The translations under genes and the position numbers were made by a program. From Syntrophales bacterium (GTDB taxonomy: Bacteria > Desulfobacterota > Syntrophia > Syntrophales > UBA6109), in NCBI GenBank assembly GCA_035366835.1, contig DAOSIS010000005.1, forward strand, positions 52 through 64,051: a DNA stretch of 64,000 nucleotides, read 5' to 3'. Shown here in pieces: positions 38,219-59,369 of this stretch (position 1 is its first letter; the number at the start of each line of letters is the position of its first letter). The notes beneath the pieces are model-generated. The model made no database searches and was not told the origin of the DNA. It worked only from the letters and a program-made list of their open reading frames with translations.

Positions 38219-39436
38219 ATGGCAAGAGAGTTGGAAGGAATCCGTATCGTAGAAGTGGGCGGAGCGGTGGCAATGCCGCTTCCGGGGGTCCTCCTGGGCA
38301 GCTGGGGGGCGGAGGTGATTCACGTCGAACCGCCCGGGAAGGGTGACAACTGGCGGCATGTGCTCGGGCAGGGCATGGCCGGCTGGGCGAAACCGCATCC
38401 GATCAACTATTACTGGGAGCATGCGGACCGCAACAAGAAAAGCATCTGCATCAACCTGGCCTCGGCGGAAGGTCAGGCCGTGCTGCACAAGCTCATCGCC
38501 TCCGCCGACATCTTCGTCAACAACCTCAGGCCCTACGAGATGAAGAAATTCAATCTTACGTACGAGGCCATGTCCAAACTCAACCCCAGGCTGATTTACG
38601 CAAATCTGACCGGTTACGGGACCAAGGGCCCGGAAGCGAACGCCGGCGGTTACGATACCGTGGGTTTCTGGGCGCGCAGCGGCGTCATGGATCTGATGCA
38701 CGATGCCGATTCGGCGCCGAACATCTCGCGGCCCTGCTACGGCGACAGCATCACTTCCCTGAGCCTTCTGGCCGGCATGCTGGCCGCGCTGTACATCCGC
38801 GAGAAGACCGGAGTCGCGCAGGCGGTCGAGATCTCGCTGTACAACACGGCCACCTGGGTGCTCGGGTTCGACATCGCCGGATGTCTGATTTCCGGGGAGG
38901 ATGTCGTGCGGCCGCAGCGCAAGACCATGGGAAACCCCATCCGCAACGTCTATCCCACAAAAGACGGCCGCTGGATCATGCTCGGCATGACGAACTCGCA
39001 GACCTACTGGGCGGGCTTCTGCAAGGCCATCGACCGGCCCGATCTCGAGAACGACCCGAAATTCGTCACGCAGGCAGCCAGGGCGCAGAACGCGGCGGAA
39101 CTGGTGCAGATCATCGAGGCGTACTTCAAGGTCCGGACGCTGGCGGAACTGCGGGACAAGCTGAACGCCAACAAGTGCATCTGGTCGCCTGCCGCGACGC
39201 CGCTGGAGGTGACGAAGGACGAGCAGGCCCTTGCGAACGACTTCTTCGTCGAGTGGGACCATCCCAAGTACGGGAAGATCAAGGTCATGAACAACCCGAT
39301 CAAGCTTTCCAAGACCAAGGCGGAAATCGCCTGCCCGGCGCCTGAATTGGGTCAGCACACGGGGGGTCTGATGAAAGGCCTCGGATACTCCGAGGACGAG
39401 ATCGCCAAGCTGAAGGCATCAGGCGCCGTCGCCTGA
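38219..39436 (+). CDS. family III (CaiB/BaiF/Frc-type) acyl-CoA transferase
   Basis: 405 aa; MARELEGIRIVEVGGAVAMPLPGVLLGSWGAEVIHVEPPGKGD...LNPRLIYANLTGYG..GP.....GYDTVGFWARSG...DHPKYGKIKVMNNPIKLS, the family fingerprint. Substrate not inferable. Confidence 0.85.
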   Translation: MARELEGIRIVEVGGAVAMPLPGVLLGSWGAEVIHVEPPGKGDNWRHVLGQGMAGWAKPHPINYYWEHADRNKKSICINLASAEGQAVLHKLIASADIFVNNLRPYEMKKFNLTYEAMSKLNPRLIYANLTGYGTKGPEANAGGYDTVGFWARSGVMDLMHDADSAPNISRPCYGDSITSLSLLAGMLAALYIREKTGVAQAVEISLYNTATWVLGFDIAGCLISGEDVVRPQRKTMGNPIRNVYPTKDGRWIMLGMTNSQTYWAGFCKAIDRPDLENDPKFVTQAARAQNAAELVQIIEAYFKVRTLAELRDKLNANKCIWSPAATPLEVTKDEQALANDFFVEWDHPKYGKIKVMNNPIKLSKTKAEIACPAPELGQHTGGLMKGLGYSEDEIAKLKASGAVA

Positions 39437-39688: not shown

Positions 39689-41782
39689 ATGATGCGGACA
39701 CCTTACAGACAGGACAGCGACTTCAATCCATCCGTTCACCAGCGCCCGCTGCTCGCCGCGTGGAAACGGTTCCTCGAAACCGGTCAGATCACGGCCGACG
39801 TCATTCCGCCGCACATCGCCGAATCGTGGAAACAGAGCCGCGCGAAGGGCGTGGATCCTTTTGTCTGCTCACGCTCGGCGCGACTGGACCCGGGCAGCTT
39901 TGAACGGCGCATCGCCGACCTGCAGTATCTCATCTACATCGCAAAACCTTTCATGGAAAAGATCTATCCGTCGCTCGATCCCCGTCGCTACCTGGTGGTC
40001 CTGTACGACGCGGAGGGATATCATCTGCTGCGGATGGGACGGGTGGCCGCGTTCGAGCGTATCAGCGGTTTTCACATCGAGGGGGGGATCTGTTTCGGGG
40101 AGAACAAGATCGGGACCTGCGGCTTCTCGCTCGTCAAGAAGTTGCGAAGACCCGTTCAGATCGCCGGCTGCGAACACTATGCCGCTTTCATGCATCGCAT
40201 CGTCGGCTCCTACGCGCCCATCAACGACCCCGTCGAGGGCGCCCTGATGGGTGTCATCGGCATTGCCGGGGCGATGACCATGCCCAACCAGCAGACGTTG
40301 GATACGATCGCGTCCGCCAGTGCGGCCATTGAAGATTCCATCAAGCAGGACCACGCACGGCGGATCTTCTCGGTGCAGGGCCGGACGCTGCAGACCATGA
40401 TCGATCACCTGGACGAGGGGATCGCCCTGATCGACCGGGAAGGAAGAATCGCCGAAATCAATCTCGCGGCGAGGACCATTTTCGGCCTCACCGGCGAGGA
40501 CGCGAAAGGTCGGCGGTTGGAGGACATTCTCTCTGCGCCCGAGGCGAGGGGGCTTCTCTCGCTCGCGGAAGGCGATTCGGCCGGATGCGATCGCCCGCTG
40601 GAGATCAGCATCCGCAGCAAGCCCTATGCCGTCCGGGGCCGGCCGGTCCGGGATCCGAAAGAGGGAGACATCGGCCGGATGATCGACCTCAAGGCGCTGC
40701 CGCCGTCTGCAAGAAGTGCGAAGAGGCCGGCGGCGGATCAGGATCCGGTCAAACCGCCGAAGGAAAGCCATCCTCCGCGGAATCCCGTCAGGGAGACCGG
40801 CGCGACGAAGGTCTTCTTTGACACGATGATCGCGTCGAGCTCCAAGATGACGGAGTTGATCGGACTCGGCAGGATGGCGGCGCGCTCCGGCGCCAATATC
40901 ATCATCGAAGGGGAAAGCGGCACCGGCAAGGAGATCTTTGCGCACGCCATACACAACGAGAGCACCCGCAGGGACGCTCCCTTCGTGGCGATCAACTGCT
41001 CGGCCATTCCCGGTGAATTGATGGAGTCCATCCTCTTCGGCCACGAGCAGGGGGCGTTCACGGGGGCACACCAGACGCACATCGGAAAATTCGAGCTTGC
41101 GGACGGCGGCACCGTCTTTCTGGACGAGATCGGCGAGATGCCGGCCGCCATGCAGGCGAAGCTGCTCCGCGTGCTGGAGGAAAAAACGATCGAACGCGTC
41201 GGCGGCAAGAAGGTCCGCCGCGTCGACGTGCGGATCGTCGCCGCTACGAACCGCAACCTCCTCAAGGAAATCCACGCCAACCGGTTCCGCGAGGACCTCT
41301 ATTACCGTTTGAATGTCTTTCGCATCGCCCTGCCCCCCCTGCGCGAACGCAAGCAGGAGATCCGTCATCTCGTCCCCTTCTTCGTGCGGCAGTTCGGTCC
41401 CCTCTTCAACAAGACCGTGGAAAGGATCCAGGAAGACTACTACCGTTGCCTCATGGACTACCCCTGGCCCGGGAACATCCGCGAACTCCGCAACGCCGTC
41501 GAATACTCGATCGCCGTTCTGAACGGCCCGGTCCTGGCGGCGGAGCACGTCCTCGGCTTCTTCCGCCAGCCTTCCGCCGACGGCAACGATCCGGCGGACA
41601 GGACCTTCCCGGGAGGACCGTTGCCCGGCCTCCTCCTGTCGGAACTGGGAGACGCGGCGATCCGCAACGCGCTCAGTGCCGCCGACGGCCACAAGACGAA
41701 GGCGGCGCGGATGCTGGGGATCAGCCGGACCACGCTGCACCGTAGACTCAAGCGAATGGCGGTGCAAGGACCGCCGCAATAG
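39689..41782 (+). CDS. sigma-54-dependent enhancer-binding transcriptional activator (AcoR-like sensory N-terminus, PAS, AAA+, Fis-type HTH)
   Basis: Walker A GESGTGKE, GAFTGA loop (EQGAFTGA), Walker B VFLDEIGEM, C-terminal HTH KTKAARMLGISRTTLHRRLKR. Start taken at MMRTPY inside ORF 39539..41782. Confidence 0.9.
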   Translation: MMRTPYRQDSDFNPSVHQRPLLAAWKRFLETGQITADVIPPHIAESWKQSRAKGVDPFVCSRSARLDPGSFERRIADLQYLIYIAKPFMEKIYPSLDPRRYLVVLYDAEGYHLLRMGRVAAFERISGFHIEGGICFGENKIGTCGFSLVKKLRRPVQIAGCEHYAAFMHRIVGSYAPINDPVEGALMGVIGIAGAMTMPNQQTLDTIASASAAIEDSIKQDHARRIFSVQGRTLQTMIDHLDEGIALIDREGRIAEINLAARTIFGLTGEDAKGRRLEDILSAPEARGLLSLAEGDSAGCDRPLEISIRSKPYAVRGRPVRDPKEGDIGRMIDLKALPPSARSAKRPAADQDPVKPPKESHPPRNPVRETGATKVFFDTMIASSSKMTELIGLGRMAARSGANIIIEGESGTGKEIFAHAIHNESTRRDAPFVAINCSAIPGELMESILFGHEQGAFTGAHQTHIGKFELADGGTVFLDEIGEMPAAMQAKLLRVLEEKTIERVGGKKVRRVDVRIVAATNRNLLKEIHANRFREDLYYRLNVFRIALPPLRERKQEIRHLVPFFVRQFGPLFNKTVERIQEDYYRCLMDYPWPGNIRELRNAVEYSIAVLNGPVLAAEHVLGFFRQPSADGNDPADRTFPGGPLPGLLLSELGDAAIRNALSAADGHKTKAARMLGISRTTLHRRLKRMAVQGPPQ

Positions 41783-41930
41783 TCTTATTCTGACACACCG
41801 GGTCTTGTCACTTGTTTCATAGAGAAACAACCTTGCCCCCTCCACGAATCCGTTCCCTGCCGGCCTTGTCGAGGCCAATATCCTGAATTGACGAGTCAAT
41901 CGGTTTTCGGCCGGCGGCTGCATTTCCGGC

Positions 41931-41946
41931 TGGCATAGGTCCTGCA
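41931..41946 (+). promoter_or_regulatory. sigma-54 (-24/-12) promoter
   Basis: TGGCATAGGTCCTGCA against consensus TGGCACG-N4-TTGCW. GG and GC are at the exact 12-nt register, 66 nt upstream of the ATG at 42012 and directly downstream of the sigma-54 activator gene. Confidence 0.75.
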
Positions 41947-42011
41947 CAATCCCCCTGCGAACGGCGAACGGGGCGCCGTTCAAATTCCCGAAAAAGGAGG
42001 AACGGGTCTTC

Positions 42012-43277
42012 ATGGCAAGAATTTACGAACATCAGGGGAAGCAGTTGCTCGCCGGAGCCGGACTTCGAGTTCCGCGGGGCGAAGTCGCGACGACGCCGGA
42101 GCAGGCGAAGGAAATCGCCCGCAGGATCGGCAAACGCGTGGTGATCAAGGCGCAGGTGTGGACGACGGGGCGGTTCAAGGCCGGCGGGATCAAGTTCGCC
42201 GATACGCCGGAGGAAGCCTGCGTGCGGGCCCGGCAGGTCCTGGAGACGAACATCAAGGGACTTCCCGTGACCAAGGTCCTTGTCGAGGAACTCCTGAAAG
42301 TCGCCCACGAGTACTATGTCGGCATCGTCGTGAACTCGTCCGTGAACATCAAGGCGCCGGTTCTTGTCTTCAGCACGGAGGGCGGAACGGGAATCGAGGA
42401 GGTCGCGGCGAGAAACCCCGAACGTGTCGGGAAACTCCTGATCGATGCGATCGACGGACTGGACATCGGGAGGGTCCGCGACCTTCTGACCCGGATGAAG
42501 GTCGAAGAGGAGCGGCGGGAAGAACTCGCCAACGCGATCTGGGGCCTCTACCGGGTCTTCCGCGATTACGATGCCCGGTCCATTGAGATGAATCCCCTGG
42601 TCTGGACGGACGACGGCCAGGCGTACGCGGCCGATTGCCACGTGACGCTCGATGACGGCTCCATCTTCCGCCACCCCGAATTCGGCATCGAGGTTCCGCG
42701 CGATATGGAGCGGGAACCGACGAAGCTGGAAAAGCTCGCCTGGACGCATATCGAGGAGAGCGATTATCGCGGCACGGGTTATTTTGCGCAGATGGTGACG
42801 GACTACAGGGGGGACAAGGTCTACGTCGGTTTTCACGGGATCGGCGGCGGCGGTTCGATGCTGGGGGCGGCGGCCCTGATCAACAAGGGTTTGAAGATCG
42901 CCAACTACGCCGACACCAGCGGGGATCCGCCCGCCAGCAAGGTGTACAAGGTGGTCAAGGCGATCTTTTCCCAGCCGATCTCCGCGTACGTCATGACCGG
43001 CGCCTGCCTTGCGAACCAGGAGCAGTGGTATCACGCATTCGCGCTGGTCAAGGTCCTCCGGGAGGAGCTCCGGGACCGTCCGGGATTCCCCGTTCTCATC
43101 CTGATTGCCGGCAACCGGGAAAAGGAGGCCATTCAAATTCTGAAAGACGGGCTGAAGGACATGGATATCCGCCTGGAGATCTACGGCCGGGAGTACATCT
43201 ATCGTTCCGACTACATCGGTGAACGCGCGGAAAAGCTCATCGCCGAGTACTTGAATGAAGAAAGGGGGGCGGAGTGA
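42012..43277 (+). CDS. ATP-grasp beta-like subunit of an acyl-CoA synthetase (NDP-forming), ATP-citrate-lyase / citryl-CoA-synthetase branch
   Basis: 421 aa; MARIYEHQGKQLLAGAGLRVPRG...VVIKAQVWTTGRFKAGGIKF (ATP-grasp). C-terminal half HGIGGGGSMLGAAALINKGLKIANYADTSGDPPASKVY resembles the ACL '..ANYGEYSGAPSE..' segment rather than the SucC '..ANFLDVGGGA..' segment (recalled from memory, no alignment run). Confidence 0.75.
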   Translation: MARIYEHQGKQLLAGAGLRVPRGEVATTPEQAKEIARRIGKRVVIKAQVWTTGRFKAGGIKFADTPEEACVRARQVLETNIKGLPVTKVLVEELLKVAHEYYVGIVVNSSVNIKAPVLVFSTEGGTGIEEVAARNPERVGKLLIDAIDGLDIGRVRDLLTRMKVEEERREELANAIWGLYRVFRDYDARSIEMNPLVWTDDGQAYAADCHVTLDDGSIFRHPEFGIEVPRDMEREPTKLEKLAWTHIEESDYRGTGYFAQMVTDYRGDKVYVGFHGIGGGGSMLGAAALINKGLKIANYADTSGDPPASKVYKVVKAIFSQPISAYVMTGACLANQEQWYHAFALVKVLREELRDRPGFPVLILIAGNREKEAIQILKDGLKDMDIRLEIYGREYIYRSDYIGERAEKLIAEYLNEERGAE

Positions 43278-43278
43278 A

Positions 43279-43620
43279 ATGAACGCGAAACGGGACATTC
43301 TTTCCTTTGAGACGAAATGCATGAAAGTCACGATCGACTATTCCCGGTGCGAGGCGGCCCGTTCCGGGGCCGCGAATCCCGGCTGCGGCTTTGCCTGCGT
43401 CAAGGCGGACCGCATGTATGACCGCGGTCTGCTGCGGATCGAGGGCCGCCGGCCGGTACTGGCGGTTCCTCCGGGAGACGCGAAAAAGATCTCCAACGAA
43501 TCCCTGTCCTGGGAGTATGCCTGCAATCAGGCGGGTTGCGGTGCCATCAGGATCGCGGTCCCTTTCCCAGGGCTTGAAGAGTACCGGAAGACGGTCGACC
43601 TTACGGGAAGAAGGAGGTAG
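43279..43620 (+). CDS. small Cys-rich protein of unknown function (possible degenerate ferredoxin-like / Fe-S or Zn module)
   Basis: 113 aa, ATG 1 nt after the upstream stop, ends 4 nt before the next start. Six Cys: C-x9-C-x11-C-x3-C ... C-x4-C (IDYSRCEAARSGAANPGCGFACVKAD ... EYACNQAGCGAIRI). I recognise no family. Confidence 0.5.
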   Translation: MNAKRDILSFETKCMKVTIDYSRCEAARSGAANPGCGFACVKADRMYDRGLLRIEGRRPVLAVPPGDAKKISNESLSWEYACNQAGCGAIRIAVPFPGLEEYRKTVDLTGRRR

Positions 43621-43624
43621 CGCC

Positions 43625-44527
43625 ATGTCCATCATTCTGCAGGAAGGGACCAGCGTCATGATCCAGGGCATCACGGGACGCTTCGGCCAATTCGTGGCCC
43701 GCAACATGCTGGACAACGGCACCAACGTCGTCGCGGGAGTGACGCCGGGCAAGGCGGGGCAGAGGGTATGGGACATCCCCGTCTACGACACGGTGCGCGA
43801 GGCATGGGACGCCCACGGACCCATCGAGACCGCGCTGATCGTCGTGCCTGGTCCCGAGGCCAGGACGGCGCTGATGGAGACCGTCGGCGTCCCCTTCAAG
43901 AACGTTCTCATGGAGATCGAACGCGTCCCCCTCCACGATTCGCTGGCCTGTATCGCCGCCTGCAAGAGGGCGGGAATCCGGCTCATCGGTCCGGGCTCCG
44001 GCGGCATCGTATGCCCGGGCAAGGGTACGCTGGGACTGTTCGGATCTCCGGAAATGGCGGAAATCGCTTTCCATCCCGGCAGAATCGGTGTAATCTCCCG
44101 CAGCGGCGGCCAGACGAGCACCCTGTCCTACGAAGTATGCAAGGCCGGTTTCGGGATCAGCACGGCCGTCAACCTGGGCTCCGAGTCCGTCCTGGGGACG
44201 ACCTTCTCCGAGCTTCTTCCGCTGTTCCAGGAAGACGCCGAAACGGATGCCGTCGTCTACTACGGCGAGATCGGCGGCGTGATGGAAGAGGAGGCGGCGG
44301 ATCTGATGCGTGCGGGCGGGTATCGCAAGCCGCTGGTCGCCTACATCGCCGGGCGCGGCCTGCCTGCGGGCATTCGCTTTTCCCACGCGAGCGCCATCAT
44401 CGAGGGAGGCCGGGGCACCGCCGAAGGGAAGGTGGGGGCCCTCAAGGGGGCCGGGGCGCATGTCGTAGACAACCCCGCCGATATCGGCTCCACGCTGAAA
44501 AAGATATTCTTGAACGTGACTTTCTGA
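43625..44527 (+). CDS. CoA-binding alpha-like subunit of the acyl-CoA synthetase (SucD/CcsB-like)
   Basis: 300 aa, co-linear with E. coli SucD as I remember it: MSIILQEGTSVMIQGITGRFG...GVTPGKAG...VISRSGGQTSTLSYE...; phospho-His loop is FSHASAII instead of MGHAGAII. Confidence 0.85.
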   Translation: MSIILQEGTSVMIQGITGRFGQFVARNMLDNGTNVVAGVTPGKAGQRVWDIPVYDTVREAWDAHGPIETALIVVPGPEARTALMETVGVPFKNVLMEIERVPLHDSLACIAACKRAGIRLIGPGSGGIVCPGKGTLGLFGSPEMAEIAFHPGRIGVISRSGGQTSTLSYEVCKAGFGISTAVNLGSESVLGTTFSELLPLFQEDAETDAVVYYGEIGGVMEEEAADLMRAGGYRKPLVAYIAGRGLPAGIRFSHASAIIEGGRGTAEGKVGALKGAGAHVVDNPADIGSTLKKIFLNVTF

Positions 44528-44546
44528 ACACAAGGGGAGGGTGGGA

Positions 44547-45479
44547 ATGGCTGATGTGAGAATCTGGAGATCGCTGCTTTTCGTGCCGGCCAACAACTGG
44601 AAGATGCTCAACAAGGCGACCGGGGAGCAGGAAGACGCGGTCATCATCGATTTGGAGGACGCCTGTCCCATGGCGGACAAGGAGACGGGACGGACATTTG
44701 CGAGGGACATTTCCCCCCTGTACAAGAAGCAGGGGATCGACGTCCTGGTGCGGATCAACTCCCTCCAGACGCGGGGGCTTACCGCCGAAGACATCAAGAT
44801 CATTGTCCGGGAAGAGCTGGACGGTGTCGTGCTGGCGAAGACGGAGACGGAACAGGACATCCGCGAAGTCGAAAAGCTTCTCGCCGATGCGGAGCAGGCC
44901 AGCGGGCAGACGGGGAAGACCTTGATTCTGCCCCTTCTCGAATCGCCGAAGGGCGTCCAGAACGCCGGCGAAATCGCCGCCGCGAGCGAACGGGTGGCAG
45001 GGCTCGCGTTCGGCGCGGCGGACTTCATGCGCGAGATGGGGGCCGGGTTCGCCGTCACCAAGATGAACCCCGATGAGTATGCGCCCTTCCTGGCTTATCC
45101 CCGTTCGGCGATCTCGGTTGCGGCGGCTGCTGCCGGCATTCTGGCCATCGACACGCCGTTCTTCGGGACGCTGACCGATCAGGAGAGGCTGGAGCGCGAG
45201 GCCCATGCGGTCAGGCTCATGGGTTTCAAAGGAAAACTGGCAATCCATCCCCGACAGCTGGAGACGCTGAATCGCGTGTTCTCGCCGTCCGAGGAGGATG
45301 TCGCACTGAGCCGGCGGATGATCGAGGCCTACCTGAAGGCGGAGGCCGAAGGGAAGGGCGCGGCGACCCTGGACGGCAAGATGATCGATGTCGCGATGTA
45401 CAAGATGGGGATGGAAACCGTCGCCAAGGCGGAGGGGATCGCCGCCAGGGCCGTCCGCAGGAAGGCGGAATCCAACTGA
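44547..45479 (+). CDS. HpcH/HpaI-CitE family acyl-CoA lyase (citryl-/malyl-/citramalyl-CoA lyase-like)
   Basis: 310 aa; RSLLFVPANN...AVIIDLEDA...PLLESPKGV...LAFGAADF... matches the CitE/Mcl metal and substrate motifs. ATG 44547 is preferred over GTG 44541. Confidence 0.85.
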   Translation: MADVRIWRSLLFVPANNWKMLNKATGEQEDAVIIDLEDACPMADKETGRTFARDISPLYKKQGIDVLVRINSLQTRGLTAEDIKIIVREELDGVVLAKTETEQDIREVEKLLADAEQASGQTGKTLILPLLESPKGVQNAGEIAAASERVAGLAFGAADFMREMGAGFAVTKMNPDEYAPFLAYPRSAISVAAAAAGILAIDTPFFGTLTDQERLEREAHAVRLMGFKGKLAIHPRQLETLNRVFSPSEEDVALSRRMIEAYLKAEAEGKGAATLDGKMIDVAMYKMGMETVAKAEGIAARAVRRKAESN

Positions 45480-45587
45480 AGGCTGCCGAAGAGGGCCTTT
45501 CGGGCCCGCCGCAGGGCTCTGCGGCGTCATGCGCGACATCCTCAGGAAAGCCCCGGAAGTTCCTGCCGGGCGTCTTGCGGCGCCCGG

Positions 45588-45620
45588 CATATCGGCGGAG
45601 CGGAGCGCTCCGCCGATATG
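45588..45620. terminator. perfect 14-bp inverted repeat (operon boundary hairpin / candidate terminator or protein-binding site)
   Basis: CATATCGGCGGAGC-GGAGC-GCTCCGCCGATATG. No flanking T-tract on either strand. Confidence 0.4.
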
Positions 45621-45666
45621 AAATCCTGCCGGATTCCGAGAGCGCATCCCGGGAAAGTGATAATTC

Positions 45667-45695
45667 TTGACACATAGCGGGTTCATCGCTATAAG
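45667..45695 (+). promoter_or_regulatory. sigma-70 promoter of the SDH-like operon
   Basis: TTGACA, exactly 17 nt, then TATAAG, 125 nt upstream of the ATG at 45820. Confidence 0.7.
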
Positions 45696-45819: not shown

Positions 45820-46647
45820 ATGAAGGTTCTGGAGGAGCGTCGCGGGCTCAGCGTCGCGCTGCTGCAGGTTCTGGAGAGGTTGCCGGTTCTTTCCTGCTAC
45901 GCGAAGACCCACGGGTGGAACTACGTCGTCAGCTGGTTGCATCGCCTGACGGGGATCGGCCTCGTCGTTTACCTGGGCATTCACCTTTACACCCTTTCGT
46001 CGCTTTCCACGCCGTCCGTCTACGACGCGAAGATGAGGATAATGTATCTGCCGATCGTCGTATTCCTTGCCTGGGCCTCGTCGCTGATGGTCGCGTTTCA
46101 CGCCCTGAACGGAGGCCGGCTGATCCTTTACGAGTCCTTCGGAAACCGGAACGACGAGACGATGATCCGCTGGACCTTCGGCCTGACCGTCTCGTATGCG
46201 CTCCTGCTGGGCATTCTCATGCTGATGAACAATCAGAACGTTTCGGCGGTCTTCTTCTGGCTGCTGACATTTTTCGCCGGCCTGGCCACAGCGTACGCCG
46301 TTGCGTCCCGCATCTGGAACACCAAGCACTCGGCCTGGTGGAAGCTCCAGCGGATCAGCGGCGCCTTCCTGGTCATCGCGATTCCGGCGCATCTGGTCTT
46401 CTCGCACCTCAACCCGGGGATGGCGCAGGAGGCGCAGGCGGTGATCGCCCGCATGCAGAATCTCTTCATCCGCTTCGTCGATCTGGTCCTTGCGGCCGCG
46501 GCGCTGTACCACACCGGCTACGGGCTCTACTCGATCGCTACGGATTACGTCTCCGCCGGTGCGGTCCGGACGGCTCTGGCGGTCCTGATCGCCGTCGTCG
46601 TCGCCGTGTTCGGCTTTCTGGCGCTCAAGTTGACACTGTTCATCTAA
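45820..46647 (+). CDS. fused SdhC-SdhD-like membrane anchor (cytochrome b) of a complex II paralogue
   Basis: 275 aa, about 6 TM helices. The N-half (WLHRLTGIGLVVYLGIHLY...AFHALNGGRLI) parallels the separate SdhC at 58544. The C-half (WWKLQRISGAFLVIAIPAHLVFSHL...LYHTGYGLYSI) parallels SdhD at 58995 (LHMAVVHL...LYHGFYGLRTI). Confidence 0.75.
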   Translation: MKVLEERRGLSVALLQVLERLPVLSCYAKTHGWNYVVSWLHRLTGIGLVVYLGIHLYTLSSLSTPSVYDAKMRIMYLPIVVFLAWASSLMVAFHALNGGRLILYESFGNRNDETMIRWTFGLTVSYALLLGILMLMNNQNVSAVFFWLLTFFAGLATAYAVASRIWNTKHSAWWKLQRISGAFLVIAIPAHLVFSHLNPGMAQEAQAVIARMQNLFIRFVDLVLAAAALYHTGYGLYSIATDYVSAGAVRTALAVLIAVVVAVFGFLALKLTLFI

Positions 46648-46664
46648 GAAAAGGGGGACGCGCG

Positions 46665-48461
46665 ATGGGAAACAAGCTGCAAATCTCTGCAACGCTGAAC
46701 TGTGATGTCCTGATCGTCGGAGCCGGGGGCGCGGGTCTTCGCTGCGCCGCGCACCTTCTCGAACACAAGCCGAACTTGAAGATTTTCGCGGTGACGAAGG
46801 TGTCGCACCCGCAGAAGTCCCACACGAGCACGGCCCAGGGCGGGCTGGCCGCCGTGGATCCGAAGGACAAGACGGACAAGCCGATCTACCACATGTTCGA
46901 TACCTGGAAGGGCGGGGACTGCTCTTCCGACCAGGACGTGGTCAAGAAGATCGTCGAGGGCGGCTGGGACGAGATCCGCTGGCTGGAGGGCCGCGGGATG
47001 CACCTGAGCCGGGACGAGGAGGGAAACATCAGCAAGCGCCAGTTCGGGGGGCACACCAACGAATTCGGCAAGGGAGACGTGTTCCGCGCCGTCTTCGAGG
47101 CCGACCGGACGGGCAAGGGCATGATGGACACGGCCTGGGGCGAGGCGCTCAAGCACGGGTCGGTCTTCATCAATTCCGCGGTCGTCACGGAGCTCCTCTT
47201 CAACGAGGGGTGCTGCGTCGGCGCGGTGCTCTACAAGATCCGGGACGGCGAATTCGTCACGGTGCTGGCGAAGGCGACCGTTCTGGCGACGGGCGGCTCG
47301 GGTCAGGTTTTCCGGATCACGACGAACTGCCGCGGCAACACGGGCGACGGCATCGCCGTGGTTCTCCGTGCCGGACTGCCGGTCATGGACCCCGAGGCCG
47401 TCCAGTTTCACCCGACGGGGATCGTGGGGCCGGGGATCCTGGCCAGCGAGGCCCTGCGGAGCGAAGGCGGGATCCTGCGCAACAAGGACATGGAGCCGTT
47501 CATGGACCGCTACGCCCCGAAGATGAAGAACCTCGCGCCCCGGGACATCGTGGCCCGCTCCATCGAGACGGAGATCCGGGAAGGCCGTGGCATCATGAAC
47601 CCCGACCACCAGATCGAGCACGTCTGGATCGACCTGCGGCATCTGCCGGACTACGTCCACGAAGTGAAGCTCAAGGAAGTGGCGAGCTTCTTCAAGACTT
47701 ACGCCAATCTGGATTCGCGCACGCAACTCTGCCCGGTGCGTCCTTCCAACCACTACCACATGGGAGGCATTCCGACCAACGCCTTCGGGGAGGTCCAGGG
47801 CGACAGCGGCCGGATCGTGCCGGGCCTCTTCGCCGTGGGGGAATGCGCCTGTGCGAGCTTCCACGGATTCAACCGCCTGGGCACCAACTCCCTGCTGGAA
47901 CTCCTGACGATGGGCCGGTACGTGGGAGAGCGCGTCGAGACCTATCTTTCGGAAAAGCCGATTTCCGCCCCCAAGGGCGCGGGCGAGGCGAGCCTGTCCC
48001 TGTTCTCGTCGTATCTGTCGGGAACGGGGAAGGAGAACGTCGGGCGGGTCCGTCTGGAGATGCGCGACATGATGACGCGCAAGGTCGGCGTTTTCCGGCA
48101 CGAAAAGGGCGTCTCCGAAGCGATCCAGGAGTTGATGGCGTTCAAGGAGCGGGCGGGGAAGACGTCGGTATCGGTCCGGGATGCGAGATGGAACCAGGAA
48201 TTGCTCGAGCGGTGGGAACTGGACAACCTGCTGGACAATGCCATGACCATGGCCCAGGGGGCGCTGCTCAGGAAGGAATCGCGCGGCGCGCATTTCCGTG
48301 AGGACTACCCGGTGCGCAGCGACGAGTTCCAGTACCATACCCTCGTGTCCATGACCGAATTCGGCAAGGTGACCTTCGGGAGGCGTGCCATCGACATGAG
48401 CCTCTTCAACGCCAAGGACGAATACTCCGAGCACTTCAAGATCATCCCGAGGAAGTATTGA
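46665..48461 (+). CDS. succinate dehydrogenase/fumarate reductase-type flavoprotein subunit (paralogue 1, Gln-type)
   Basis: 598 aa; DVLIVGAGGAGLR, FAD-linking SHTSTAQGG, FHPTG, LRSEGG, HYHMGG, NRLGTNSL, ESRGAHFREDYP. Internal ATG of ORF 45915..48461 after AAGGGGGA. Confidence 0.9.
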   Translation: MGNKLQISATLNCDVLIVGAGGAGLRCAAHLLEHKPNLKIFAVTKVSHPQKSHTSTAQGGLAAVDPKDKTDKPIYHMFDTWKGGDCSSDQDVVKKIVEGGWDEIRWLEGRGMHLSRDEEGNISKRQFGGHTNEFGKGDVFRAVFEADRTGKGMMDTAWGEALKHGSVFINSAVVTELLFNEGCCVGAVLYKIRDGEFVTVLAKATVLATGGSGQVFRITTNCRGNTGDGIAVVLRAGLPVMDPEAVQFHPTGIVGPGILASEALRSEGGILRNKDMEPFMDRYAPKMKNLAPRDIVARSIETEIREGRGIMNPDHQIEHVWIDLRHLPDYVHEVKLKEVASFFKTYANLDSRTQLCPVRPSNHYHMGGIPTNAFGEVQGDSGRIVPGLFAVGECACASFHGFNRLGTNSLLELLTMGRYVGERVETYLSEKPISAPKGAGEASLSLFSSYLSGTGKENVGRVRLEMRDMMTRKVGVFRHEKGVSEAIQELMAFKERAGKTSVSVRDARWNQELLERWELDNLLDNAMTMAQGALLRKESRGAHFREDYPVRSDEFQYHTLVSMTEFGKVTFGRRAIDMSLFNAKDEYSEHFKIIPRKY

Positions 48462-48497
48462 ATGAAGGCTTCTTCGCCGCAAATACAGGAGGAAGGT

Positions 48498-49208
48498 ATG
48501 TCCAAGATCTTCTCGCTGACCCTGACGATCAAGCGCTACGATCCCGATGCGGAGAAAACCTGGTTCCAAACCTACAAACTGGAGGCGGGGGGCATCCTGC
48601 GCTTCGTCGATCTGTTCCGGAGAATCAACGTGGAGCAGGACGCCACGCTGAGCTGGGCGTCCTCGTGCGAACACGGGCAGTGCGGGAGCTGTTCCGTGAA
48701 GATCAACGGCCGGCCGATGCTGGCCTGCGAGCTTCTGGTGGAAAACGCCGTCGAGCTGTTCGGCACCACGGAATTCAAGATCGAGCCCGTGACGGTCGCT
48801 CCGGTGATCCGGGACCTGGTCGTGGATTGGGAAAAGGCCTACGAACGGGTCCACCGCGCGAAACCCTACGTGATTTCGCCCAAGCAGCTTCCGCCCGGCG
48901 TCACGGAGCACGTCATTTCCCCGCAGGAAATCGCCAGGTACGAAGACGCCACGCGCTGCATCAACTGCTTCTGCTGCGCCACCGCCTGCATCAGCTCCCA
49001 CAGGAGCTTCATCGGCCCCAATGCCGCCATGGCCAGCATCGTGCGCATGATGGATACGAGGGAAACGGCGAAGGAGGAAAGACTGGATCTCCTGTACAGC
49101 GAAGAGGGGGTCTACCGCTGCCACACCTCGAAGGCCTGCACGCACGTCTGCCCCAAGAAGATCGACGTGGCCCACTTCATCGCCCTGGCGAAGGAAGGGG
49201 AGTTTTGA
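48498..49208 (+). CDS. complex II iron-sulfur subunit (paralogue 1)
   Basis: 236 aa; [2Fe-2S] SCEHGQCGSCSVKINGRPMLAC, then CINCFCCATAC and CHTSKACTHVCP clusters. ATG after AGGAGGAAGG. Confidence 0.9.
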   Translation: MSKIFSLTLTIKRYDPDAEKTWFQTYKLEAGGILRFVDLFRRINVEQDATLSWASSCEHGQCGSCSVKINGRPMLACELLVENAVELFGTTEFKIEPVTVAPVIRDLVVDWEKAYERVHRAKPYVISPKQLPPGVTEHVISPQEIARYEDATRCINCFCCATACISSHRSFIGPNAAMASIVRMMDTRETAKEERLDLLYSEEGVYRCHTSKACTHVCPKKIDVAHFIALAKEGEF

Positions 49209-49279: not shown

Positions 49280-50629
49280 ATGCCGAAGGAAATTCTCGCC
49301 GACCAACTGGCAAAATATTTCTGCGGGCTTCGCTTCGAAGACCTGGGAAAAGAGCATGTCGCCAACATGAAGGGGTACATCCTGGACTGGCTGGGTTCGG
49401 CCTACGCGGGCAGGGATCTGCCGCCGGTCCGGATGATGCGGAGCGTCGCCGGTAGTCTCGGCGGCAAGCCGGAGTCGACCTCCATTCCCGACGGCACCAA
49501 GACCAGCTGCATCCTGGCGGCGCTGGTGAACGGCGCGACATCCCACGTCGTCGAGATGGACGACCTGCACCGGGAGTCGATCCTTCATCCGGCCTGCGCC
49601 ATCCTTCCCGCGGTCCTCGCCCTTGGGGAGCGGCAGCACGCCCCGGGCAGGGATCTGATCCTTGCGGCCTCCGCCGGCTACGAAGTGGGCATCCGCGTGG
49701 CCCTGGCCGTGGGGACGAGCCATTACTACTCCTGGCATACGACGGCGACCTGCGGGACCTACGGCGCGGCGGCGGGTGCGGCCAAGCTGCTGGGCCTCGA
49801 CGAGGATCAATTCGCATGGGCCCTGGGGTCGGCGGGAACGCAGGCGGCCGGACTCTGGGAATTCCTGGTGGAATGCGCCATGAGCAAGCAGCTCCACCCG
49901 GGCAAGGCGGCGATGAACGGTCTCCTGGCGGCCCTGCTGGCGAAGGAGGGGTTCACGGGCGCACGCAGGATCCTGGAAGGCGAGAAGGGGTTCTTCCGCG
50001 CCACGTCGAAGAACTTCGATGAGGGCAAGTGCACGGCGGACCTCGGAAAGGTCTTCCACGGCGACCGCAATTCCATCAAGTACCACGCCTCCTGCGGTCA
50101 CACCCACTCCGCCATCGACGCCGTGCAGCTGGCCACCGGCGGCAGGACCCTGAAAGCGGCGGAGGTCGCGGACGTCCGCATCCAGGTTTATCAGGCGGCG
50201 ATCGACCTCCTGGGGAACGTCGAGGCGAAGTCGCCGTACCTCGCGAAATTCAATCTGCCGTTCTGCATCGCCACGGCGCTGCTCTTCGGGCACGTCCGGC
50301 TGGACGATTTCAGCGAAGCGCGCCTGGCCGACGCCGAGATCCGGAACCTGATGTCCAAGGTTTCTTTCACGGTCGATCCCGAATTGACGAAGGCCTATCC
50401 GCGCAAGTGGCCCGCCCGCGTGACGATCACCCTTGCCGACGGTCGGAAGCTGGAGGCCTGCAACGAATACCCGAAAGGCGATCCGGAAAATCCCCTGACG
50501 GCGTCCGAACTGGTCGCGAAATTCAAGAGCCTTACCGCCGGGATTCTCTCCGGGGCGCAGGCAGACCGGATCGTCGAGAAGGTGATGAATCTGGAAAAGA
50601 TCGCCGATGCAAACGAACTGCTCTCGTGA
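49280..50629 (+). CDS. MmgE/PrpD family protein (2-methylcitrate dehydratase-like)
   Basis: 449 aa; ...LDWLGSAYAG...ALVNGATSHVVEMDDLH...HPACAILPAVLALGE... family pattern. Substrate unknown. Confidence 0.85.
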   Translation: MPKEILADQLAKYFCGLRFEDLGKEHVANMKGYILDWLGSAYAGRDLPPVRMMRSVAGSLGGKPESTSIPDGTKTSCILAALVNGATSHVVEMDDLHRESILHPACAILPAVLALGERQHAPGRDLILAASAGYEVGIRVALAVGTSHYYSWHTTATCGTYGAAAGAAKLLGLDEDQFAWALGSAGTQAAGLWEFLVECAMSKQLHPGKAAMNGLLAALLAKEGFTGARRILEGEKGFFRATSKNFDEGKCTADLGKVFHGDRNSIKYHASCGHTHSAIDAVQLATGGRTLKAAEVADVRIQVYQAAIDLLGNVEAKSPYLAKFNLPFCIATALLFGHVRLDDFSEARLADAEIRNLMSKVSFTVDPELTKAYPRKWPARVTITLADGRKLEACNEYPKGDPENPLTASELVAKFKSLTAGILSGAQADRIVEKVMNLEKIADANELLS

Positions 50630-50693: not shown

Positions 50694-51581
50694 ATGGCCG
50701 GGAAAGAATTGCACGGCATCTTCCCCTATCTCGTCACACCCCTGGATGAACAGGGACACCTCAAGGAGCAGGTGCTGGCCGATGTCGTCGATCACCTCAT
50801 CCGTCAGGGCGTCCACGGCGTCACGCCGCTGGGCAGCACCGGCGAGGCCCCCTATCTGGACTGGGCGACGAGAAAGAAAACCGTGGAGGTTGTCGTGAAC
50901 GCCGCGGCCGGGCGCGTCCCGGTCGTCGCGGGGATCTGCAACATGTCGACACCGGGGGCCGTGCGTGAGGCCGTGGAAATCGAGAAACTGGGCGTCGACG
51001 GCATCCTGACCATCATGCCCAGCTACTTCCCCTTGGGAGAGCCGCAGGTCGTCGGCCACTTCCGCGCCATCGCCAAGGCCGTGAACTGCCCCATCACGCT
51101 CTACACCAATCCGAAATTCCAGACCTGGGACTTCACGGTGGATGCGTTGAAGCAGCTCGCCGAGGAACCGAACATCCAGTACCTGAAAGATGCTTCCGGA
51201 AACGTCGGGAAGATCATGTCCATTGTCTCCACGCTCGGCAGCCGGATCAAGATCTTCAGCGATACCTCTTCCGTCCCGCTGTTCATGTTCCTGATCGGGG
51301 GCGCCGGCTGGATGTCGGGGCCCGCCTGCATCATACCGAAGCAGAGCATCGAGCTCTACGAAACGGCGAGGCAGAAGAGATGGGAGGAGGCGGCGCAGCT
51401 GCAGATCAAGCAGTGGCCCATGAACGTCGCCTTCCAGCGGTTCTCCCTGTCGGCCTGCGTGAAGGCGGGTCTGGAAATGCAGGGATTTCCCGTAGGGCCC
51501 CCCATGCCGCCGCAAAAGCGGCTGAACCCCGAGGAGAGAAAGGCCCTGGAAAAGATCCTCCGGGACATCGGCGCGCTGTAA
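50694..51581 (+). CDS. DapA/NAL-family class I (Schiff-base, pyruvate-type) aldolase or dehydratase
   Basis: 295 aa; GIFPYLVTPLDEQG, LGSTGEAPYL, IMPSYFP, candidate Schiff-base Lys in IQYLKDASGN. Not obviously a true dihydrodipicolinate synthase. Confidence 0.8.
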   Translation: MAGKELHGIFPYLVTPLDEQGHLKEQVLADVVDHLIRQGVHGVTPLGSTGEAPYLDWATRKKTVEVVVNAAAGRVPVVAGICNMSTPGAVREAVEIEKLGVDGILTIMPSYFPLGEPQVVGHFRAIAKAVNCPITLYTNPKFQTWDFTVDALKQLAEEPNIQYLKDASGNVGKIMSIVSTLGSRIKIFSDTSSVPLFMFLIGGAGWMSGPACIIPKQSIELYETARQKRWEEAAQLQIKQWPMNVAFQRFSLSACVKAGLEMQGFPVGPPMPPQKRLNPEERKALEKILRDIGAL

Positions 51582-53745: not shown

Positions 53746-53879
53746 AGGTCAATGCTTTTATACAATGCGTATATGTTCATGACGACAGAATTCGCAAAAA
53801 CAATTCACCCAGCCCATTTCCCAACGTTCAGCACGAGTCTTTGAATCCTAATTCTTCTGAGAGAAAGGAGCACCCCAGC

Positions 53880-55334
53880 ATGGCCAAGATTGATCTCAAG
53901 ATGACGGACCTGAAGAAGGCCTTCCCGAAGAACTTTACGCCTGCGCAGATTGCAAAGGGGCAGACGATTTTTCTGAAGGAACTGGCCTATGAAGCGCACA
54001 AGTACTACGGCGGCAAGATGATGACGGTTCCGAAGGCCGGTCTGTACAGCTTCAATTGGTTCAACGTTTACTACAGCCCCGGCGTTTCGAAGATCTCGAC
54101 CTCGATCCGCGACGACAACAACCTCTCTTTCGAACTCTCCAACCGCGCGAACCTCGTCGCGGTGGTCAGCGATTCCACGCGCGTCCTGGGCGACGGCGAC
54201 TGCACGCCCCCCGGCGGCCTGGGAGTCATGGAAGGCAAGGCCTTCCTGATCAAGTATCTCGGCGGTCTCGATGCGATCGCACTTTGCGTGAACAGCTACA
54301 ACGCAAAAGGCGAGCATGACGCCGACAAAATCATTGAGTTCGTGAAGATGCTGCAGCCGAGCGTCGGCGCGGTCAACCTCGAAGACATCTCGCAGCCGAA
54401 CTGCTTCAAGGTCCTGGACACCCTGCGGGAAGAGTGCGAAATTCCCGTCTGGCATGACGACGCGCAGGGCACCGCCTGCGTGACCCTCGGCGGTTTGATC
54501 AATGCCCTGAAGGTCGCCGGCAAGCAGATGGGCAAGGTGAAGATGGCCTTCTTCGGTGCCGGGGCCTCCAACACGACGATCGTCCGTCTGATCCTCGCGG
54601 CAGGTGCCGATCCGGACAATATCGTGATGTGCGACTCCAAGGGAGGACTGCACAAGGGCCGCAAGGACATCGAGGCCGACAAGCGCTACTACCGCAAATG
54701 GGAAATCTGCGAGGCAACGAATCCCAACAGGATCAACAACATTCAGGATGCCATGAAGGGTGCCGACGTGCTGATTTCGCTTTCCACGCCGGGACCGGGC
54801 GTCATCAAGGCTGAGTGGGTGAAGACCATGGCGAAGAAGTCGATCGTCTTTGCCTGCGCCAACCCCGTTCCCGAAATCTATCCCTACGAGGCGAAGGAAG
54901 CGGGCGCCTACGTCGTGGCCACCGGCCGCGGCGACTTCCCCAACCAGGTGAACAACTCCATCGGCTTCCCCGGCATCCTCAAGGGCGCCTCCCTGGTGAA
55001 GGCGTCGAAGATCACGGATGGGATGGCGATCGCGGCCGCCAAGTGTCTGGCCAAGACGGCCGAGAAGCGCGGTATCAATCCCGACGACATCGTCCCGAAG
55101 ATGACGGAATGGGAAGTCTTCCCCTCCGAAGCCAGGGACGTGGCCATGCAGGCCATCAAGGACGGCGTCGCCAGGGTGAAGATGTCCGCCAAGGAAGTCT
55201 ACAAGAAAGCCTATGATGACATCGCCGAGTCGCGAAAACTGACGGAGACCCTGATGGCGAAGGGTTTCATCAGGAAACCGCCCGTCAGCATGCTGGAAAA
55301 GGCGCTCAAGAAGGCGATTGCTCAGGCCAAATAG
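53880..55334 (+). CDS. maeA: NAD(P)-dependent malic enzyme (short, non-PTA-fused form)
   Basis: 484 aa; ...VVSDSTRVLGDGDCTPPGGLGVMEGKAFLIKYLGG..., dinucleotide fold FFGAGASNTT, ...NNSIGFPGILKGA. ATG after GAAAGGAG. The gene symbol is generic. Confidence 0.88.
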   Translation: MAKIDLKMTDLKKAFPKNFTPAQIAKGQTIFLKELAYEAHKYYGGKMMTVPKAGLYSFNWFNVYYSPGVSKISTSIRDDNNLSFELSNRANLVAVVSDSTRVLGDGDCTPPGGLGVMEGKAFLIKYLGGLDAIALCVNSYNAKGEHDADKIIEFVKMLQPSVGAVNLEDISQPNCFKVLDTLREECEIPVWHDDAQGTACVTLGGLINALKVAGKQMGKVKMAFFGAGASNTTIVRLILAAGADPDNIVMCDSKGGLHKGRKDIEADKRYYRKWEICEATNPNRINNIQDAMKGADVLISLSTPGPGVIKAEWVKTMAKKSIVFACANPVPEIYPYEAKEAGAYVVATGRGDFPNQVNNSIGFPGILKGASLVKASKITDGMAIAAAKCLAKTAEKRGINPDDIVPKMTEWEVFPSEARDVAMQAIKDGVARVKMSAKEVYKKAYDDIAESRKLTETLMAKGFIRKPPVSMLEKALKKAIAQAK

Positions 55335-55347
55335 ATAGGGGGTTACC

Positions 55348-56187: not shown

Positions 56188-56200
56188 ATGGAGGATTAGC

Positions 56201-56758: not shown

Positions 56759-56787
56759 AGACAAATACTCGATAAAGGTGGGTGGAT

Positions 56788-58533: not shown

Positions 58534-58543
58534 GGGGGACACG

Positions 58544-58981: not shown

Positions 58982-58994
58982 AGGGAGCTTCGCG

Positions 58995-59369
58995 ATGAGA
59001 GAGACAGCATACTGGATCTGGTTTGTTATTGCCGGGCTCGTCATCTTCGTTCTGGGCGGGCTCCACATGGCGGTAGTCCATCTGAGCGGGATTGTCGGGA
59101 TCTTCAACCCGGCCGGCGCGGAAGCCGTGGCGTGGGAAAATGTGGCCTTCCGGAGTCATTCGACGTTCTTCATGATTGCGTACATCCTGCTGTTGGCGGC
59201 AGTGCTCTATCACGGTTTCTACGGCCTGCGAACGATCGTCTTCGAGCTGGGGATCGGCAAGGCCTGCCAGCGGTCGCTGACGGTGGCGCTGTGGATCGTC
59301 GGGGTGGTCCTTTTCATTGTCGGTGCCTATGCCGCGATTGCGGCCAAGACGCTGGGCGCAGCCCTATAG
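58995..59369 (+). CDS. complex II membrane anchor subunit D
   Basis: 124 aa, 3 TM; ...GGLHMAVVHL...LYHGFYGLRTIVFELG... Confidence 0.75.
   Translation: MRETAYWIWFVIAGLVIFVLGGLHMAVVHLSGIVGIFNPAGAEAVAWENVAFRSHSTFFMIAYILLLAAVLYHGFYGLRTIVFELGIGKACQRSLTVALWIVGVVLFIVGAYAAIAAKTLGAAL

Follow-up and report, generated by a model that had tools for sequence, protein, structure and literature searches.

A conserved operon pairing a putative three-subunit acid-CoA ligase with a CitE-type lyase in a Syntrophales bacterium and its relatives

The stretch of DNA considered here (the window) comprises 64,000 nucleotides from a Syntrophales bacterium (GenBank assembly GCA_035366835.1, contig DAOSIS010000005.1, positions 52 to 64,051 of the forward strand). 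Between positions 42012 and 45479, it carries four co-directional genes that encode two subunits resembling those of the succinyl-CoA synthetase (SCS) and ATP-citrate lyase (ACL) superfamily, a small cysteine-containing protein located between them, and a lyase of the CitE/HpcH type:

42012-43277, forward strand: beta-like ligase subunit (421 aa; ATP-grasp_2, 1e-54)
43279-43620, forward strand: small Cys protein (113 aa; without a Pfam or NCBIfam match)
43625-44527, forward strand: alpha-like ligase subunit (300 aa; CoA_binding PF02629, 2.5e-18, and Ligase_CoA)
44547-45479, forward strand: CitE/HpcH lyase (310 aa from the ATG; PF03328, 7.7e-42)

An alternative GTG start at 44541 would extend the lyase to 312 aa. 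The genes are separated by gaps of 1, 4 and 19 nt, so that the tight packing described when this DNA was previously interpreted from its letters (the sequence-only reading) holds at all junctions. Long open reading frames (ORFs) on the reverse strand opposite the four genes (41817-43331, 43601-45061 and 44442-45686) are presumably the usual by-product of high-GC DNA rather than genes.

The order beta, small protein, alpha, lyase is identical in all 18 further loci that were compared (19 of 19 with the window), which belong to Desulfobacterota, Dehalococcoidia, Bathyarchaeia, Nezhaarchaeota, Sulfolobales, Ignisphaera, Thermosphaera and metagenome contigs. In nine of these 18 (L005, L007 and L010-L016), the beta subunit and the small protein are fused into one ORF. 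The module proteins are 47-77% identical between loci, and a closely related contig, from GCA_022707105.1, encodes an alpha subunit 95% identical to that of the window. Homologues of the beta subunit make up at least 120 metagenome clusters at 58% identity or more, and the named ones are all metagenome-assembled genomes (MAGs). A plasmid collection, from which the MtkAB/Mcl and SucCD reference sequences were drawn, contained no family member (the best match was 32% identical), and full-text literature searches found no description of the gene set. The sequence-only reading had proposed that the ligase is coupled to a CitE-fold lyase, and this pairing is kept in all loci examined. By these comparisons, the module is a real, conserved and undescribed system, predicted to work as a ligase and a lyase in two steps.

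Both ligase subunits fall below all NCBIfam equivalog cut-offs and form clades of their own (100/100), which supports the earlier view that the ligase is no ordinary SucCD or MtkAB. The beta subunit scores 212.5 against a cut-off of 370 for SucC (NF001913), in an alignment limited to residues 3-225, and 145 against 604 for the malate thiokinase subunit MtkA (NF010647), while the alpha subunit scores 265 against 336 for SucD (NF004230). The trees were made by neighbor joining, a distance method, with few references, and show separateness rather than exact branching. The beta family is monophyletic at 100/100, and the Mtk clade was recovered without the family at 99-100/100 for both the beta and the alpha subunits. 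Membership in MtkAB was rejected.

The beta subunit is a mosaic. Its N-terminal ATP-grasp domain is most similar to that of SucC (47% identity to the Thermus protein), whereas the C-terminal domain is closest to citryl-CoA synthetase (CCS) and ACL. It scores 33 bits against the Citrate_bind model (PF16114; cut-off, 26.8), and its matches in the PDB are CcsA at 1.6e-8, AclB at 4e-5 and SucC at 0.02. The predicted structure of this domain (predicted local distance difference test score [pLDDT], 88.7) retrieved CCS and ACL chains as the top 16 Foldseek matches, with template modeling (TM) scores of 0.68-0.78; the CCS chain 6hxq_B is among them (E = 7e-9, TM 0.77). SCS beta chains gave 0.56-0.65, except for one human ADP-forming SCS chain at 0.71. 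A split that separates the family, CcsA, AclB and a second CCS-like protein from locus L007 from SucC and MtkA received 88/100 with full-length sequences and 92/100 with the C-domain, but only 8/100 with the ATP-grasp domain alone. The segment KIANYADTSGDPPASKVY, which the sequence-only reading had likened to ACL, is present and aligns with ‘ANYAEYSGDP’ of ACL and ‘ANFTDIGGNP’ of CCS, where SucC and Mtk have ‘ANFLD(V/I)GGGA’. The likeness thus extends to sequence, tree and predicted fold. Invariant signatures of the family are GGGG(S/A), A(N/T)Y.DTSG(D/N)P, ANQEQW and LIAGN(K/R)E, while the SucC-type C-domain motifs GAGL, ANFLD(V/I)GGGA and GGI(V/T)R were not encountered in it.

The residues around the presumptive acid-binding site were compared using human ACLY numbering, mapped onto the family through Chlorobium AclB. 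The family retains the GGGxS and AN(Y)..SG(D/N)P motifs of ACL and CCS, with an equivalent of G309, and the A-N of the loop at 343-348 (N346). This loop reads L-A-N-Q-E-Q-W without variation, so that Gln stands in the position of F347 and Glu in that of T348, and both arginines of the ‘VRRGGPN’ motif of ACL and CCS (human R378 and R379) have become L and I/L, respectively. In ACLY, the 343-348 loop reportedly binds the hydroxyl and the central carboxylate of citrate and R379 its pro-R carboxylate, an assignment attributed to Sun et al. (2010). If these roles hold, the loss of R378, R379 and T348 together with the retention of the hydroxy-acid features would favor malate or citramalate over citrate as the substrate.

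The alpha subunit is closer to its SCS counterpart. It consists of a CoA-binding Rossmann domain with a GxTGxxG-type N-terminus and a phosphohistidine domain, is 37-43% identical to SucD and MtkB, and matches SucD at 241 bits, CcsB at 151 and AclA at 120. The phosphohistidine loop, RFSHASAI(I/V), is invariant, including His254, in all 19 members, where the SucD-type loop has GHAGA. The altered loop noted earlier in the window (FSHASAII versus GHAGAII) is therefore a trait of the whole family.

The small protein had been noted as Cys-rich, and its gene is real; overlooked were its fusions to the beta subunit and its likely part as a ferredoxin-like third subunit. There are 92 clusters of homologues of the small ORF, always between beta and alpha or fused to the C-terminus of beta. 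When 1.84 billion representative proteins were searched with a profile, 75 clusters were retrieved at E ≤ 1e-3, several of which are 491-541-aa fusions, and the family appears from this to be rare and specific. Since it is fused to beta in nine loci, the small protein is probably a third subunit of the ligase. Cys24, Cys36 and Cys40 are invariant. The archaeal orthologues have eight cysteines in the pattern C-x4-C-x3-C-x3-C ... C-x2-C-x2-C-x3-C, and matches to the Fer4 dicluster models Fer4_2 (3.7e-4) and Fer4_7 (1.7e-3) span both motifs, although both are below the gathering scores. The window protein gave no match to Fer4 models. It keeps Cys24, Cys36 and Cys40 and the last cysteine of the second motif, but the first three cysteines of that motif are gone, and Asp44 stands where the first motif has its fourth. 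This pattern would fit the loss of one of two clusters, if the ligation scheme of classical ferredoxins applies. An AF2 model of the protein (pLDDT 86.6) found no match in the PDB with Foldseek. The subunit thus looks like a degenerate 2x[4Fe-4S]-ferredoxin-like domain, in which Fe-S binding is suggested by the cysteine motifs.

The fourth gene encodes a member of the CitE/HpcH superfamily, as the sequence-only reading had it. It scores 143.5 bits against PF03328 (threshold, 25), and the superfamily residues D..ED, E, FGA.D, GK..HP and G.MID, with its C-terminal Asp, are invariant in the family. The protein is 28-35% identical to malyl-CoA lyase (Mcl), RipC/Ccl, E. coli CitE, a Deinococcus CitE-like protein and CLYBL, but it does not reach the equivalog models for citE (203 against 443) or RipC (168 against 375). 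It forms a clade of its own at 99/100, grouped with Mcl in 0 of 100 replicates and lacks the Mcl insertion, and so appears to be a new branch outside Mcl, RipC and CitE.

Since the lyase gene always lies directly 3' of the ligase genes, the product of the ligase is expected to be the substrate of the lyase, that is, a 3-hydroxyacyl-CoA. We consider it about 80% probable that the module is a three-subunit hydroxy-dicarboxylate-CoA ligase and a CoA-ester lyase, acting on neither succinate nor citrate. The ligase would be a heterotrimeric, ADP-forming acid-CoA ligase made from the beta, ferredoxin-like and alpha subunits. ATP bound in the ATP-grasp domain of beta would phosphorylate His254 of alpha, the phosphate would pass to a carboxylate held in the CCS/ACL-like C-domain of beta, and CoA would then thiolyze the acyl phosphate. 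The CitE-fold lyase, presumably Mg2+-dependent, would split the 3-hydroxyacyl-CoA into acetyl-CoA (or propionyl-CoA) and a 2-oxoacid. The ferredoxin-like subunit may be structural or redox-sensing rather than catalytic. The substrate would be a 2-hydroxy-dicarboxylate without the third carboxylate that citrate carries, in the first place (S)-citramalate, which would yield acetyl-CoA and pyruvate, and in the second L-malate.

The module appears to be controlled by its own activator and promoter and to end in a set of hairpins:

39689-41782, forward strand: sigma-54-dependent activator (697 aa; MimR_N-type sensor, PAS, AAA+, HTH_8)
41930-41946, forward strand: candidate sigma-54-type -24/-12 promoter, CTGGCATAGGTCCTGCA (GG-N10-GC; motif match with two mismatches)
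45491-45620, forward strand: GC-rich hairpins beyond the lyase stop codon (predicted RNA folding energy, -85.7 kcal/mol; z = -4.0)

The Pfam matches of the activator are Sigma54_activat (1.6e-70), HTH_8 and PAS; MimR_N was assigned on the near-identical gene in locus L001. The candidate promoter lies 65 nt 5' of the beta ATG and directly 3' of the activator gene. The sigma-54 promoter proposed in the sequence-only reading is thus found together with an activator, although the motif alone occurs at chance level (23 in the window against 20.8 expected). What makes the candidate credible is its position and the equivalent, perfect site in the homologous operon of L018, TGGCATATTCCTTGC (TGGCAT-N5-TTGC), behind an activator that is 54% identical to that of the window. 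With a -24 GG/-12 GC element at the correct spacing and a cognate activator, the operon is probably sigma-54-dependent. In the other loci, no sigma-54 motif was found 5' of beta, because their operons begin elsewhere; L018 has its motif at the operon start. A short palindrome, ATTGAC-GA-GTCAAT, at 41887-41900, 30 bp 5' of the -24 element, may be the binding site of the activator; a repeat finder at the thresholds used detected no inverted repeat 5' of the promoter.

The hairpins, which include a perfect 14-bp stem near 45588-45620, are probably the end of the transcription unit of the module, and a terminator scan 3' of the lyase gene found no U-tract terminator. A sigma-70-like promoter (TTGACA-17-TATAAG) is seen at 45667-45695, 5' of the SdhCD gene. 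The hairpins and this promoter together imply that, in this genome, the Sdh and PrpD-like genes that follow are probably transcribed separately from the module.

The genes that surround the module were passed over when it was first described in isolation; the operon itself is real, but it belongs to a wider conserved neighborhood. In the window, this neighborhood includes the following:

38219-39436, forward strand: family III CoA-transferase (PF02515, 6e-107; below all NCBIfam equivalog cut-offs)
45820-49208, forward strand: Sdh/Frd complex (fused SdhCD anchor, 45820-46647; flavoprotein, 46665-48461; Fe-S subunit, 48462-49208)
49280-50629, forward strand: MmgE/PrpD-family protein (IDS-epimerase or B. 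subtilis ‘IRG1’ type)
50694-51581, 3' of the MmgE/PrpD gene: DHDPS/NAL-family gene (class I pyruvate aldolase-type; among the 19 loci, in the window only)

MmgE/PrpD-family genes are the commonest neighbor, occurring within 10 kb of the module in 12-13 of the 19 loci, followed by an Sdh/Tfr-type flavoprotein in ten. Class I fumarase-like alpha and beta genes are found within the same distance in four loci, with a partial copy at the edge of L007 and a copy about 10 kb downstream in the window. DUF1847 genes lie within 10 kb in five loci, major facilitator superfamily (MFS) genes in four and Asp/Glu-racemase-family genes in two; family III CoA-transferases are near the module in four loci, including L002, L004 and L009. 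Uptake systems adjoin the module as well: TAXI-TRAP transporters in L013 and L015, ABC transporters in L010 and L018, and MFS proteins in L016-L018. The most extended arrangement is that of L018, in which the order is sigma-54 activator, fumarase-like alpha and beta, DUF1847, TfrA/TfrB-like, CDC48_N-like, MmgE/PrpD, module, MFS and ABC. Within this extended operon, the DUF1847 gene (L018, 4159-4893; also in L003, L005, L006 and L008) and the gene for a small CDC48_N-like protein (L018, 8246-8578; two loci) fall between the hydratase, Tfr-like and MmgE/PrpD genes.

The MmgE/PrpD protein of the window most resembles B. subtilis ‘IRG1’, IDS epimerase and cis-aconitate decarboxylase. The conserved His and the two Lys residues are present in it, and a Tyr precedes the second His by four residues, an arrangement seen in two-base isomerases. 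It was rejected as a true PrpD, with 35-52 bits against 2-methylcitrate dehydratase models that have cut-offs of 458-950. An MmgE/PrpD protein was recently described as a (S)-(R)-methylsuccinate isomerase, in clusters that end in a CitE-type (S)-citramalyl-CoA lyase (Gonner et al. 2025, PMC12290011), and the known MmgE/PrpD substrates are all substituted succinates (PMC12290011). For class I fumarases, the hydration of mesaconate to (S)-citramalate has been described (PMC4682846). Taken together, the transporters and the MmgE/PrpD, Sdh/Tfr and fumarase-like neighbors point to the catabolism of substituted succinates (the C5 acids methylsuccinate, mesaconate, itaconate and citramalate) or of malate. 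The importers beside the module and the sigma-54 activator and promoter likewise fit catabolism.

Several other clusters accompany the module. The window carries a second set of dicarboxylate genes at 53841-63266, consisting of malic enzyme (53841-55334), class I fumarase alpha and beta (55348-56187 and 56144-56758), a Frd/Tfr-like flavoprotein (56782-58533), an Fe-S subunit (59317-60216) and TRAP DctP/Q/M (60373-63266). The set resembles one for the fermentation of fumarate and malate and could feed or drain the module. In L007, a second, CCS-like ligase pair (4883-8349, reverse strand), divergent from the module, stands beside an MmgE/PrpD gene and SdhCDAB; its beta' subunit has ANYCEIGGNPS and NTRVD and its alpha' subunit RFGHAATIV, and there is no ferredoxin-like subunit or adjacent lyase gene. 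This suggests a wider radiation of CCS-like ligases in Desulfobacteraceae. In L002, from a Nezhaarchaeota MAG, the module is flanked (13541-16567 on the reverse strand, and 3303-8159) by an Old-Yellow-Enzyme/enoate-reductase-like flavoprotein and a polyferredoxin, two family III CoA-transferases and an ADP-forming acetyl-CoA synthetase pair, a set compatible with the reduction of an unsaturated acid and the recovery of ATP from acetyl-CoA. An Asp/Glu-racemase-family gene lies just 5' of the module, with CCG-domain proteins, in L003 (8383-9132) and L008; this family includes maleate cis-trans isomerase. Nothing around the operon looks like a foreign island, with a GC content of 55-63% across the window, and an Rfam scan of the window found nothing beyond a tRNA at 212-285. 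This tRNA-Trp (212-288) belongs to a housekeeping block at positions 1-29000, with secY (23510-24817), rpoA (27566-28582) and ORFs at 3669-7769 and 7855-12015 that we take to be rpoB and rpoC; the block is followed by lptD, a semialdehyde dehydrogenase-family gene and cysS.

The version of the two-step module that acts on citramalate and related C5 acids is the one that we prefer, if only tentatively, since its chances seem a little short of even. In this version, substituted succinates would be imported and processed in upper steps at the level of the free acids, and the module would carry out the lower part of the pathway. The (R)- and (S)-forms of methylsuccinate would be interconverted by the MmgE/PrpD-like enzyme and oxidized to mesaconate by the Sdh/Tfr-like enzyme, and the fumarase-like enzyme would hydrate mesaconate to (S)-citramalate; alternatively, itaconate or citraconate might be hydrated or isomerized to the same compound. 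Citramalate would be activated by the ligase and then cleaved to acetyl-CoA and pyruvate. We know of no ATP-dependent citramalate-CoA ligase. That the module forms the core of an undescribed free-acid pathway for C5-branched dicarboxylates in strict anaerobes, with a new Fe-S-containing citramalate-CoA ligase, is a more doubtful proposition. Its hosts, by which itaconate, mesaconate, methylsuccinate and citramalate would be fermented or oxidized, would include hyperthermophilic and Asgard-related archaea. In a variant of this pathway, the ligase runs backwards and the thioester is conserved as ATP.

A number of observations count against the C5 assignment. The best match of the lyase in the PDB is the malyl-CoA lyase of Methylobacterium, at 130 against 111 bits. 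The MmgE/PrpD neighbors are 25-61% identical between loci, compared with 47-77% for the module, a divergence so much greater that they may not represent one orthologous step. In the window, a 340-nt gap with hairpins parts the module from the Sdh and PrpD-like genes. Sdh and fumarase would equally fit the plain conversion of succinate to malate, and the expenditure of ATP, costly for syntrophs, would favor the reverse direction. The trees have the limits of neighbor joining with few reference sequences, and the argument from R379 depends on the role in ACLY attributed to this residue by Sun et al. (2010).

Several of these points bear on the strongest competitor, an unlikely but serious one, in which the module is an analogue of malate thiokinase and malyl-CoA lyase that converts malate via malyl-CoA to acetyl-CoA and glyoxylate, or works backwards. 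The backward route, from acetyl-CoA and glyoxylate via malyl-CoA to malate and ATP, followed by malic enzyme, would be the more attractive one for anaerobes, and it has a precedent: an anaerobic malyl-CoA pathway with synthesis of ATP is reported from Syntrophobotulus glycolicus and Moorella HUC22-1 (cited in PMC8092247). The layout parallels that of mcl-mtkAB (L022), the best solved relative of the lyase is Methylobacterium Mcl, and a malic enzyme is at hand together with the fumarase/Frd/TRAP genes at 53.8-63.3 kb, as are the Sdh/Frd and fumarase neighbors; the loss of R378 and R379 is compatible with malate, too. However, this would leave the commonest neighbor, the MmgE/PrpD-like protein, unexplained, and the family lies outside the MtkA and MtkB clades, as the lyase does outside that of Mcl. 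The adjoining importers suggest that the acid is imported, and imported malate needs no ATP-dependent activation.

Another 3-hydroxy acid, such as beta-methylmalate, 3-hydroxy-3-methylglutarate or a tartrate-derived acid, is a rather improbable substrate, for which the module would form the lower part of a different pathway. CitE-family lyases do take varied substrates, and the CitE-like enzyme of M. tuberculosis also cleaves HMG-CoA. The MmgE/PrpD neighbors are heterogeneous, and the fumarase-like subunits score near the TtdAB models. However, the data point to none of these acids specifically, and the C5 assignment covers more of the conserved neighbors.

Cleavage of citrate, in which a CCS-like ligase would make citryl-CoA for a CitE-type citryl-CoA lyase, seems improbable, whether for citrate or tricarballylate catabolism, a reductive TCA cycle or a reverse, ATP-yielding synthesis of citrate. 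The Citrate_bind score is above the cut-off, the C-domain is nearest to CCS and ACL in fold and sequence, CitE is the citryl-thioester lyase of citrate lyase, and the Tfr-like, hydratase and MmgE/PrpD-like neighbors could, in principle, handle tricarballylate or aconitate. Yet the two arginines of ‘VRRGGPN’ are missing, Glu invariably takes the place of T348 and Gln that of F347, and the lyase falls well below the citE equivalog cut-off. No genes for aconitase, isocitrate dehydrogenase or 2-oxoglutarate:ferredoxin oxidoreductase were found in the neighborhoods examined. Of the three substrates suggested in the sequence-only reading, citrate has become the least likely.

A comparably long shot is that the same C5 chemistry runs in reverse as an ATP-conserving fermentation, in which acetyl-CoA and pyruvate would form citramalyl-CoA and then citramalate and ATP, followed by dehydration and a Frd/Tfr-like reduction to methylsuccinate as an excreted electron sink. 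Ligases of the SCS family are reversible, the hosts (Syntrophales) are energy-limited anaerobes, and Tfr/Frd-type reductases, hydratases and MFS proteins are adjacent; moreover, the sources of methylsuccinate in nature are known only in part (PMC12290011). Nevertheless, the binding proteins of TRAP and ABC importers and the sigma-54 sensor-activator better fit a catabolism that is induced by its substrate, and no such fermentation is known.

Finally, an ordinary succinyl-CoA synthetase beside an unrelated CitE gene, as the SucC-like ATP-grasp domain, the SucD-like alpha subunit and the adjacent Sdh genes might suggest, is effectively refuted by the scores below the SucC and SucD cut-offs, the separate clades, the extra subunit and a linkage to the lyase that is strict across two domains of life.

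The preferred C5 assignment and the alternatives all place the module near known systems. It shares with MtkAB and Mcl of the serine cycle and the anaerobic malyl-CoA pathway a two-subunit, ADP-forming ligase of the SCS superfamily beside a CitE/HpcH-fold lyase and the same reversible, two-step logic; L022 carries such an mcl-mtkA-mtkB operon. It differs by its CCS/ACL-like C-domain in beta, the extra ferredoxin-like subunit, the SHAS rather than GHAG loop and a lyase in a separate clade, as well as by its hosts, which are strict anaerobes and archaea rather than methylotrophs. Since Mcl itself has the CitE/HpcH fold, the partner is less odd than the earlier description of the module as a hybrid would have it. 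With CcsAB and Ccl of Hydrogenobacter and with ACL, the module shares the acid-binding domain of beta, its GGGxS and AN(Y/F)..(S/G)G(D/N)P motifs and its fold, and in both cases a hydroxy acid is (or, for the module, would be) split in two steps into acetyl-CoA and an oxoacid. However, the lyase of the module has the CitE fold rather than that of citrate synthase, R378, R379 and T348 are not conserved, alpha is nearer to SucD, and there is an extra Fe-S-type subunit. SucCD has the same ATP-grasp N-domain, alpha architecture and phosphohistidine mechanism, but the module is below its equivalog cut-offs and has another C-domain, a third subunit and an obligatory lyase partner.

The itaconate/methylsuccinate cluster of Pseudomonas and Cupriavidus (Ict, Ich, Ccl, Mcd and Msi; PMC12290011) likewise combines an MmgE/PrpD enzyme with a CitE-family lyase and ends at acetyl-CoA and pyruvate. 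There, activation is by CoA transfer, and an acyl-CoA dehydrogenase and a MaoC-type hydratase act on CoA esters, whereas the neighbors of the module (Sdh/Tfr and class I fumarase-like) would act on free acids, with ATP-dependent activation last. The MmgE/PrpD proteins near the module are closest to IDS epimerase and B. subtilis IRG1 and are probably not orthologues of Msi. We regard the module as a third relation of Mtk/Mcl and CCS/CCL, distinguished by a new subunit of the Fe-S type, and not as a citrate-cleaving hybrid. Of the earlier interpretation, the undescribed ligase and lyase module has survived, while the citrate and hybrid framing has not.

If this is correct, the module would be a fourth type of system that activates an acid and then splits it, beside ACL, CCS/CCL and Mtk/Mcl; to our knowledge, no other ligase of the SCS/ACL superfamily has a ferredoxin-like subunit. 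The mosaic of a SucCD-like alpha subunit and ATP-grasp domain with a CCS/ACL-like acid domain also bears on the evolution of ACL and CCS from SCS. A function would be provided for genes that are labeled ‘succinyl-CoA synthetase’, ‘acetate-CoA ligase family’ or ‘citrate lyase beta’ in the MAGs of several groups (Desulfobacterota, Dehalococcoidia, Bathyarchaeia, Nezhaarchaeota, Hodarchaeota and Thermoprotei), and we suspect that such annotations can mislead automated calls of reductive TCA or TCA cycle capability. Itaconate-fermenting bacteria are not yet known (PMC12290011), and the module could show how anoxic communities use itaconate-family acids or glyoxylate.

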